Source of the DNA: Nitrospirota bacterium | Lineage (GTDB): Bacteria > Nitrospirota > UBA9217 | Assembly (NCBI GenBank): GCA_963663225.1 | Contig: OY760142.1 | Span: 1,952,001 to 2,016,000 of the forward strand | Length of the DNA stretch: 64,000 nt | Reading direction: 5' to 3' | In this document: piece by piece, positions 47,869-49,384 of the stretch | How the letters are laid out: every line of letters starts with the position of its first letter | Position numbering within the stretch: position 1 is the first letter of the stretch | Translations under genes and position numbers: made by a program | The notes under the pieces: generated by a model | Databases searched by the model: none | The model's input: only the letters and a program-made list of their open reading frames with translations | Told to the model about the DNA's origin: nothing

Positions 47869-48051
47869 ATGTTTATACCGCTAGAGCAGTGCCAAATCTA
47901 CAAGGATGGTCAATGGATTACGGTGGCAGCTTCGGACTGCATGTGTTTCACCTGCGATGCTCCGTGTTCTCCTTGTGAAAAAGACTGTCCGGGGCCGACG
48001 AAGGAATGTAAAAAGAAACAAGACGCAGTAAAAAACGGCAGGCTTCCTTGA
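47869..48051 (+). CDS. Small cysteine-rich protein (60 aa, 8 Cys)
   Basis: ATG after GGGGGTG, upstream TATAAT, CxCxxCxxxCxxCxxxC cluster. Confidence 0.55.
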   Translation: MFIPLEQCQIYKDGQWITVAASDCMCFTCDAPCSPCEKDCPGPTKECKKKQDAVKNGRLP

Positions 48052-48210
48052 TTTTATTTACAAACGGAGCTAAAGAAACCGAAGAAAATGCAGCTAAGAT
48101 AACTGCGGAGCTTTTCGCCGACGTTCTTTCAACTTTGGGTACGAATCTCACCTGGACACCGGCATGTGTGCATAGATTTCGACCACCGGTGTCTTATTAT
48201 GGAGGTGACG

Positions 48211-48681
48211 ATGATATCGCCGATCGGACCACCTGCTAGCCTGTTTTCCTACTTTCAGACCGATGCTGTTGCCAGGAACAAGTCAGCTTCCCCCGCAGAT
48301 ACTATGGCTGTTCAGGCCTCCGCGGATTCAGAAAAAACCGCAGCCATAGGCCCGAACGAGTGCAAAACCTGAGCGTCGAGAAAGTACAAGGATCGGTCAA
48401 ATGATCCTTCCGTTTCGTTTCAGACGCCGACGTCGGTAGCCCCTGAACTTGCCGCGAGTGCTGTGCGCGCCCATGAGCAGGAGCATGTTCAGCACAATGC
48501 ATTAAAAGCAGAGAGCGCCGGTATGAAAGCGACCTCAATCGTACAGATACATACCGCCGTATGTCCTGAGTGCGGCAGAATTTATGTGTCTGGGGGGACC
48601 ACTATCACGACCTTTTCACCTGACCAATCCTTCACTCCAACGGACTCTTCCAACGGAATGCTCGTCAATATCCGCGTATGA
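48211..48681 (+). CDS. Putative selenoprotein (156 aa) with CxxU, HExxH and CxxC motifs, function unknown
   Basis: GGAGGTG RBS. The ORF-track pieces 48166-48372 and 48463-48681 are in one frame, separated only by TGA 48370-48372 (ECKT-U). SECIS-like hairpin downstream. Confidence 0.78.
48388..48409 (+). promoter_or_regulatory. Candidate bacterial SECIS element
   Basis: AAGGATC-GGTCAAAT-GATCCTT. The stem starts 15 nt after the UGA and the loop begins GGUC. Confidence 0.65.
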
Positions 48682-49021
48682 GCGCGGCAGCGTCCTGTGT
48701 CACGAGATGCATCCATCGGGTTCCAAGTATCTCACACGTGTTTACAAATTGAATTGCCTGGAAAAATAACCTGCCTGTTGCAGGCAAATCTTCTTCTCAA
48801 CAATATGCACGGACGTCTTCATGAGTTGAGCTTCTTGAGCCCTGCAGGGCGGGCGGAGGGTTTTGCCGACTTGCGGACTTTTATGTCTGATACGAAAATA
48901 TTATGTAGAATCTGTTTTAAAATACTGATAGACTTGTTGCCGAAGATGCATAATAGCCGCTATGCTTTTTACACGGAACCTATTTGAATTCTCATTATTT
49001 ACTATGACGGGGAGGCAAGGC

Positions 49022-49384
49022 ATGTTTGGGATGGGAGCCATGGAGTCTATCGCGATTATTCTGCTGGTTGTGCTGATAGGGGCCGCAATCTGGTTGACTT
49101 TTTTCCTTAAAAAAAAATATCCGAACAATATCTGGATTGGGTTTATTCTCAGTTTTTTGCTGCCTCCCATCGGTCAGTTGTACATCGCGGGGGCGCTGCC
49201 ATGGATCACCGCTTTATTTGTCTGCTACGTTTTTTTTCAGGGCTTTCGCATAACGATAGCCACGGCATGGCTGTTGACCGCGGCGGTTTCGGGCATAATC
49301 ATGTGTTATAGACTGCTCCAGCAAAAGAAATCACCGGAGAATTCACCGGTGAAATTGCCAGCGAAAAAAAGCAAAAAAAAATAG
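49022..49384 (+). CDS. Hypothetical membrane protein (about 4 TM)
   Basis: GGGAGG RBS, hydrophobic segments, basic tail. Confidence 0.7.
   Translation: MFGMGAMESIAIILLVVLIGAAIWLTFFLKKKYPNNIWIGFILSFLLPPIGQLYIAGALPWITALFVCYVFFQGFRITIATAWLLTAAVSGIIMCYRLLQQKKSPENSPVKLPAKKSKKK

Follow-up and report, generated by a model that had tools for sequence, protein, structure and literature searches.

A reading frame that is intact except for one internal stop codon raises the question of whether this codon ends the gene or is decoded as selenocysteine (Sec). Such a frame lies at positions 48211-48681, on the + strand, of the 64,000-nucleotide stretch analysed here (referred to as the window), a segment of contig OY760142.1 from a Nitrospirota bacterium. 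A preliminary description of the locus had proposed a hidden selenoprotein in which a CxxU/CxxC pair is combined with a metallopeptidase-like HExxH motif. Our analysis indicates that the in-frame UGA most likely encodes Sec in a small putative metal-binding protein. The account that best explains the observations as a whole, and which we consider probable, is that of a working selenoprotein gene whose product would have a metal-binding core and whose family would be tied to the flagellum.

A single in-frame TGA in a conserved gene

The gene starts with an ATG at 48211, and a Shine-Dalgarno-like GGAGGTG, read directly at 48201-48207 on the same + strand, lies 3 nucleotides (nt) ahead of it. From this start one frame runs to the terminal stop TGA at 48679-48681; its sole interruption, visible directly in the sequence as the preliminary description had stated, is the TGA of codon 54 (48370-48372). 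With codon 54 as Sec, the coding sequence comprises 156 residues plus the stop, and the product read across the TGA is ...NECKT-U-ASRKYKDRSNDPSVSFQTP...VRAHEQEH...HTAVCPECGRIYVSGG. Under translation table 11 the frame is broken into small open reading frames (ORFs), which is the split by standard annotation that had been foreseen. Gene callers give shortened C-terminal ORFs for homologs, with starts at in-frame GTG or ATG codons of V68. All nine Sec-form loci examined (9/9) have an unbroken frame over the TGA and a common N-terminus, M-I/T-x-P/S-I/V/L/Y-G/N/S.

Homologs were expected to carry Cys at the position of the UGA, and they do so in both a protein-level and a DNA-level sample. A word-indexed protein search gave 860 matches at E <= 1e-3; among the best 120 of these 860, the residue-54 column holds Cys in 114 and Trp in two, where the TGA was called as Trp, and it is missing in four, which are truncated ORF calls beginning just past that column. 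An exhaustive profile search returned 1152 clusters at 50% identity, 1002 of them at E <= 1e-10. The DNA-level sample consisted of 87 loci, namely the seven from the window's phylum and the best 80 of at least 518 relatives confirmed among 600 pattern matches in a scan of species genomes. Codon 54 is TGC in 41 of these loci, TGT in 36 (77 Cys loci together) and TGA in 10. Within the phylum, the gene was found in 7 of 401 sampled genomes, with TGA in six and TGT in one (G015). Since two of the ten TGA loci duplicate the sequence of another, there are eight distinct Sec forms. By origin, three belong to the window's genus, one to its family and two to a second family of the phylum, and further Sec forms come from records titled Desulfocapsa, Nitrospirota and Smithella.

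The window's genome (G000), a single contig of 3.26 Mb that is 99% complete, contains selA, selB, selC and selD, the machinery whose presence the preliminary description had left to be confirmed. selA scored 597 bits and is adjoined by selB (376 bits), the tRNA-Sec matched its Rfam model with 62.8 bits and was assigned the anticodon TCA by ARAGORN, and the Sec-type selD (372 bits) itself contains one in-frame TGA. The Rfam tRNA-Sec model matches once more at G000:C1:522308-522451 on the - strand (locus L002); this match is 144 nt long, scores 48.9 bits, just above the cut-off, and directly adjoins the Sec-type selD, and ARAGORN calls no tRNA there.

The TGA is neither a sequencing error nor an oddity of one strain, two outcomes against which the preliminary description had cautioned: contigs of three other public runs (X5, X6 and X18) retain it. 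The X5 contig shows 0 differences over 530 nt, that of X6 shows 29 differences over 801 nt, none of them within 48343-48603, and that of X18 shows 7 differences, none at the TGA codon; run X23, taken as raw reads, yielded one partial read only. That a TGC or TGT has decayed or been misread to TGA, leaving a pseudogene product that stops at codon 53, is scarcely credible: table 11 does split the frame, and callers elsewhere do give shortened C-terminal ORFs, but the TGA recurs in 10 loci, which represent 8 distinct sequences and several lineages and have intact frames on either side, three independent data sets keep it, the diverged relative in X6 among them, and the hairpin described below is conserved in TGA forms only.

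A hairpin downstream of the UGA

Sec insertion in bacteria depends on SelB, which together with Sec-tRNA(Sec) binds a hairpin downstream of the UGA. A hairpin of this kind lies at 48388-48409 on the + strand, where a 7-bp stem (48388-48394 paired with 48403-48409) closes the loop GGUCAAAU, whose GGUC start had been pointed out in the preliminary description. In numbering from the U of the UGA, the two arms of the stem are nt 19-25 and nt 34-40. The isolated hairpin has a folding energy of -9.3 kcal/mol and a z-score of -2.36, with 5 of 200 shuffles folding as well. The model of the bacterial Sec insertion sequence (bSECIS) given in PMC13188914 has a loop of 3-9 nt, a stem of 4-16 bp, a G in the first two loop positions, a distance of 16-37 nt from the UGA and a minimum free energy of at most -7.5 kcal/mol. 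The hairpin agrees with each of these published constraints, having a loop of 8 nt that starts with G, a stem of 7 bp, a spacing of 22 nt and the energy given above.

Over the 87 loci examined, the hairpin is conserved in the TGA forms only. In the ten TGA loci, 7, 7, 7, 5, 7, 6, 7, 5, 6 and 7 of the 7 stem positions pair, and the loop starts with GGUC in nine and with AGUC in one. The same stem positions form 0-6 pairs in the 77 Cys loci (mode 3, with one locus at 6), and GGT is found at the loop position in 5/77. The GG of the loop derives from Arg62 (CGG) in 9/10 Sec forms, and D-R-S occurs in 1/77 Cys forms, so that the RNA constrains the protein sequence in UGA-bearing forms alone. Across the eight distinct Sec forms, 92.9% of cells pair, compared with 21-50% in controls in which the 3' arm was slid, and two pairs have changed in a compensatory manner (A-U to C-G and A-U to U-A). 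The other Sec-using genomes in which a TGA had been anticipated thus share not only the codon but also a SECIS-like hairpin.

Several observations qualify the evidence from the hairpin, however. The covariation comes from eight sequences and is matched by 20 of 500 shuffles, and the part of the stem reading GAUC...GAUC follows to some extent from two conserved Asp codons. In addition, the 71 nt after the UGA fold no better than shuffles (z -1.23, 21/200), and the mean energy of the 63 nt past the codon is -15.6 in Sec forms versus -13.7 in Cys forms (standard deviation 4.0).

It is highly improbable that the UGA is read by a near-cognate Trp or Cys tRNA, or that the locus gives two products, with a peptide of 53 residues followed by a C-terminal domain made by reinitiation. 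The GTG and ATG codons at V68, which gene callers take as starts, are in keeping with the latter, but the genome holds a complete Sec machinery and the hairpin fits the bSECIS model at the right distance. Moreover, the homologs are single chains in which the N-terminal knuckle is joined to the core, and splitting them would lose the invariant CxxC partner. Sec is very probably inserted at UGA54. With the ribosome at this codon, SelB and Sec-tRNA(Sec) would bind the hairpin, which starts 16 nt downstream and lies within codons 60-67; Sec would then be inserted, and translation would continue to give the 156-residue protein.

An uncatalogued selenoprotein family

The family is unnamed and comprises about 1150 clusters at 50% identity, most of its members having Cys at position 54. 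No Pfam domain was found in any of the 120 listed homologs (the best 120 of 860). Table 1 of a 2026 review (PMC13188914) lists 119 prokaryotic selenoprotein families with model identifiers. None of the Pfam, TIGRFAM and NF models listed in this table matches the protein, or the 32 members of our family alignment, above noise, and the few catalogued families that are defined by cd or PTHR identifiers only were set apart by their names (Prx-like, TlpA, CopZ, BtuF, Fe-S oxidoreductase), which denote other folds. This comparison supports the suggestion of a little-known or new selenoprotein family made in the preliminary description.

Two other sets of candidates were considered and rejected as counterparts. 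The Olavius symbiont proteins OS_HP1-3 (PMC1976440), with 0-2 Cys homologs, correspond to other models of the PMC13188914 table, and the deep-Sep families DG, DW and DF (PMC12013277) show no domain, and their NF models do not match. A full-text literature search found no paper tying a selenoprotein to the flagellum and a zinc ribbon. Judged by these comparisons of sequences and models, we are dealing with a genuine selenoprotein family that had not been catalogued before. The bacterial selenoproteins thereby gain a well-supported family, one that is split or lost in standard annotation.

With the selenoproteins that carry a bSECIS in their coding region (such as fdhF and the families catalogued in PMC13188914), the gene shares a Cys-aligned UGA, a stem-loop 16-37 nt downstream whose loop starts with G, the presence of selA, selB, selC and selD, and a CxxU motif. 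Unlike the catalogued ones, it is matched by no listed model and has no thioredoxin-like fold.

To place the Sec forms within the family, we used a tree of 84 distinct core sequences, in which many forks are unresolved because the core alignment has only 95 columns. All eight Sec forms fall into one clade of 12 rows, together with four Cys forms (support 100/92). The Sec/Cys label needs three changes on the tree, at least two of which are forced by well-supported branches, and none of 500 label shuffles was as low. The Sec forms are apparently confined to one subfamily, in Sec-rich anaerobes. The Cys (TGT) form of G015 (locus L026), from the window's own genus, is clearly diverged and resembles that of a record titled Nitrospirota (P0022), which hints at replacement or transfer inside the genus.

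Predicted structure and putative metal site

The conserved motifs of the protein are all encoded on the + strand. A variable N-terminal segment of about 45 residues (48211-48345), predicted to be disordered, begins with a conserved M-I-x-P-I-G. It is followed by the C51-K-T-U54 knuckle (48361-48372), by H88-E-Q-E-H92 (48472-48486), and by a CPxCG-type knuckle, H114-x3-C118-P-E-C121 (48550-48573), which here reads H114-T-A-V-C118-P-E-C121-G. In the 32 aligned members, C51, C54, R57, D61, S63, D65, V68 and S69 are invariant, as are H88, E89, H92, C118, P119, C121, G122, Y125, G128 and G129; the motif given in the preliminary description agrees with the actual consensus of this family.

An AlphaFold2 model built from the 32 sequences has a mean pLDDT (predicted local distance difference test) of 70.7, with values of 84-94 in the core and below 50 at residues 1-37 and 42-45. 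In this model, CxxU lies in a short helix (52-55), a long helix (78-102) carries HExxH, and strands 105-117 and 124-137 form a β-hairpin with CPEC at its turn. The protein would thus combine a compact core of roughly 90 residues with a disordered tail of some 45 residues at its N-terminus. A Foldseek search of the model against the PDB gave no match at E <= 1e-3 (best E 0.029, an HU-like protein, TM-score 0.15). A VIA-align comparison with 48,161 chains reached Z 4.2 at best, and its 50 rows contained no peptidase, and a sequence-profile search of the PDB returned nothing under E 1.5. Likewise, neither the protein nor any of the 32 members exceeded the cut-off of a family in Pfam or NCBIfam. 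Below the cut-offs, zinc-ribbon models matched repeatedly (Rpr2 in 26/32 members, FYDLN_acid in 24/32, MqsA-type CxxCG in 19/32 and FmdB in 6/32), and Zn_peptidase_2 matched 7/32 members (best E 0.012).

PF12118 (SprA-related) is the nearest named family, with a weak match. The tie that the preliminary description had suggested to an SprA-related HExxH family stands in so far as a profile similarity exists: hhalign aligned a profile of 12 PF12118 proteins with the family over 49 columns (P 5e-4, probability 31%), the shared columns being VRAHExxH...G...(CPEC or GPD-)G-x-x-Y-x-x-GG. With the natural Cys homolog P0022 as query, the ESM Atlas gave unnamed clusters as the nearest and PF12118 as the nearest that has a Pfam assignment, at 0.75, which we treat as a lead only. 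The PF12118 hidden Markov model (HMM; gathering cut-off 27.3 bits), found in 22/301 genomes of the same phylum, has no match on the protein (E <= 1) or on the window's genome (E <= 10). The low hhalign probability, the modest Atlas score and the lack of an HMM match make the tie a weak one and count against building on it.

Both families start with M-x-I-x-x, contain a low-complexity linker and end in a short hydrophobic tail. They also have in common a V-R-A-H-E-x-x-H helix followed by a β-hairpin with G-x-x-Y-x-x-G-G, and both co-occur with flhA. Unlike the selenoprotein family, PF12118 has GPDG in place of CPEC and is without the CxxC/U-RKYxDxSxD segment, so that it has neither a Cys4-type site nor a known Sec form. 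Among the sampled genomes of the phylum, the two occur in different taxonomic families. A zincin-like nature of PF12118 is predicted in PMC3650047.

The invariant CPxCG, the second invariant CxxC/U and the joint absence of both knuckles from the PF12118 relatives point to a Cys3Sec site of the zinc-ribbon or rubredoxin type. Most likely, C51-x-x-U54 and C118-P-E-C121 share one tetrahedral metal, with the selenolate as one of its four ligands. Such a site would clamp the N-terminal knuckle onto the β-hairpin, packed against the HExxH helix. Two points detract from this assignment: every match to a zinc-ribbon HMM stays below its cut-off, and metal binding is read from motifs. The HExxH motif lies on a predicted helix, as in zincins, and H114 is no more than a candidate third ligand; HExxH, possibly together with H114, may form a second metal site, catalytic or sensing. 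Sec would then apparently reside in a zinc-ribbon-type metal site rather than in a thioredoxin fold.

Sec takes the place of Cys in a small putative metal-protein knuckle also in FmdB (TIGR02605, UxxU), the dual-CXXC protein NF041197 and MbdU. These proteins are not homologous to the family (TIGR02605 matches 6/32 members with a best E of 0.053, NF041197 none), and unlike them the family has an HExxH helix besides the knuckle.

The main rival to the metal site is a redox role of the CxxU, although the two readings are compatible with each other. U54 would in that case be redox-active, with CxxU forming a selenenylsulfide in a thiol oxidoreductase or switch and the second CxxC serving as resolving or partner pair. 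H114-x3-C118-x2-C121 is spaced like the HxxxCxxC motif of ZAS anti-sigma factors, whose zinc site is redox-sensitive, and an anti-sigma model matches 3/32 members (E 0.19); unlike in ZAS, the motif lies on a predicted β-hairpin and not in a helical bundle. For most of the prokaryotic selenoproteins catalogued in PMC13188914 that have a CxxU or UxxC motif, a redox function is assumed there, but the same catalogue also has Sec in metal-binding proteins of the CxxC type, for example the FmdB zinc ribbon, MbdU and CopZ-like proteins. As the protein has no thioredoxin-like fold or model match, and CPxCG with a second CxxC is the usual signature of zinc ribbons and rubredoxins, we regard the redox role as unlikely.

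Co-occurrence with the flagellum

The preliminary description had not foreseen an association with the flagellum, which is seen in the phyletic pattern of the family. flhA, a gene of flagellar export that was scored by PF00771 in the 401 genomes of the phylum sample, is present in 226 of them, but in 17/64 genomes of the window's family (the window's genome included) and in 3/14 of family f24. All seven holders of the gene in this sample have flhA, compared with 13/71 non-holders of families f1 and f24. The pattern repeats inside the window's genus, with flhA present in the four holders and absent from the two non-holders, whose genomes are 94% and 88% complete. An unrelated Bacillota family, represented by 109 genomes at least 90% complete, with the gene present in 27 and flhA in 48 of them, showed the same tendency: flhA was found in 26/27 holders versus 22/82 non-holders (Fisher p 6e-11, which, like a second value of 3e-5, overstates the case because related genomes are not independent). 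Five more holders from other phyla all have flhA, as do 21/22 holders of PF12118. We infer from this pattern that the family is tied to the flagellum and found almost only in flagellated bacteria, and its members may be substrates or accessories of the flagellar type III export system. For PF12118, PMC5223770 reports that the Campylobacter jejuni protein CJM1_0395 is present in the supernatants of the wild type but not of a flgG mutant, a result obtained by liquid chromatography-mass spectrometry and FLAG tagging in two strains of this species.

Upstream of the gene, on the + strand, 48071-48097 has the layout of a putative sigma-28-type promoter, with TAAAG at 48071-48075 and a -10 box at 48090-48097. 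This box reads GCAGCTAA here and, in its textbook form, GCCGATAA in three close relatives (two genus mates and one metagenome relative); the X6 contig, through 48092 A>C and 48094 C>A, has GCCGATAA as do G050 and G221. In view of these two substitutions, the gene may be expressed differently here.

Against the tie to the flagellum, it has to be considered that the genomes compared are related and the link is a correlation of phyletic patterns, and that flhA is missing from a holder of the gene (G414) and from a holder of PF12118 (G249, 99% complete). In a scan of 100 flanking ORFs at 50 loci (51 had sufficient flank, and the L069 pair was left out because it duplicates L064), no conserved operon was found, and 3/50 loci have a motility or chemotaxis neighbour (a methyl-accepting chemotaxis protein, flagellin and PilZ, once each). 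The sigma-28 motif is not enriched family-wide, the strict motif occurring once upstream in sense orientation versus 0, 1 and 1 times in controls (74 loci), and the -10 box of the window's genome carries the substitutions at 48092 and 48094.

It is therefore quite possible, though in our judgement short of likely, that the co-occurrence is merely phylogenetic and that the protein is a cytoplasmic zinc-ribbon/HExxH protein, for example a nucleic-acid-binding protein or a small metallopeptidase. Besides the missing flagellar neighbourhood, the lack of family-wide sigma-28 enrichment and the two exceptions without flhA, the weak top matches of Foldseek, which are HU/IHF-like proteins with a helix and a β-arm (E 0.03-0.1, TM-score about 0.15), are in line with this. 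On the other hand, the co-occurrence recurs in two unrelated groups and within one genus, and the nearest named family has one member whose secretion has been found experimentally to depend on the flagellum.

The flagellar tie, if real, allows a bolder proposal, which we consider doubtful though conceivable: the protein would be the first selenoprotein of the flagellar system, exported by or partnering its type III apparatus, with an HExxH site shaped by the Cys3-Sec clamp, and its family would form a widespread superfamily with PF12118. Should this hold, the two families would constitute an unstudied superfamily of flagellum-associated mini-metalloproteins that spans Bacillota, Thermodesulfobacteriota, Nitrospirota, Spirochaetota, Thermotogota and others. 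The co-occurrence with flhA gives both the unnamed family and the uncharacterised PF12118 a testable biological setting, and it suggests that many anaerobes and gut Bacillota may have a flagellar accessory or secreted protein that has gone unrecognised.

With FlgM, the protein has in common a disordered N-terminus and a FlgM-like start. A role as FlgM replacement was considered and rejected because canonical FlgM (PF04316) is encoded elsewhere in the genome, as in 5/5 holder genomes; the protein itself gave no FlgM match. The FlgM of the window's genome, at G000:C1:271754-271918 on the - strand (locus L120), begins with MKISSNGP, which resembles both the family N-terminus MISPIGP and the PF12118 starts MNISS and MEISS. 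The similar N-termini of FlgM, the selenoprotein family and PF12118 may represent a shared export signal, although the resemblance is anecdotal.

Neighbouring sequences

The only neighbourhood to recur in the 50-locus scan was found in the Lachnospiraceae loci L081, L083, L084, L088, L096 and L106, where DUF2752 lies upstream (four loci) and DUF975 downstream (five loci).

In the window, a terminator-like hairpin with a weak T tract, detected by a consensus scan only, is located at 48772-48786 (+ strand), 91 nt past the stop codon. No RNA data set is listed as containing the stretch, and a run labelled RNA-Seq was rejected as evidence of expression, its 190-nt contig having been flagged as probably DNA. 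Further downstream, an ORF of 140 residues at 48962-49384 (+ strand) has no Pfam match and resembles a small membrane protein whose tail is rich in lysine. Finally, between secA and the selenoprotein gene, 47869-48051 (+ strand) contains an ORF of 60 residues with nine Cys (..CMCFTCDAPCSPCEKDCPGPTKEC..), the sequence of which is kept in two genus mates.

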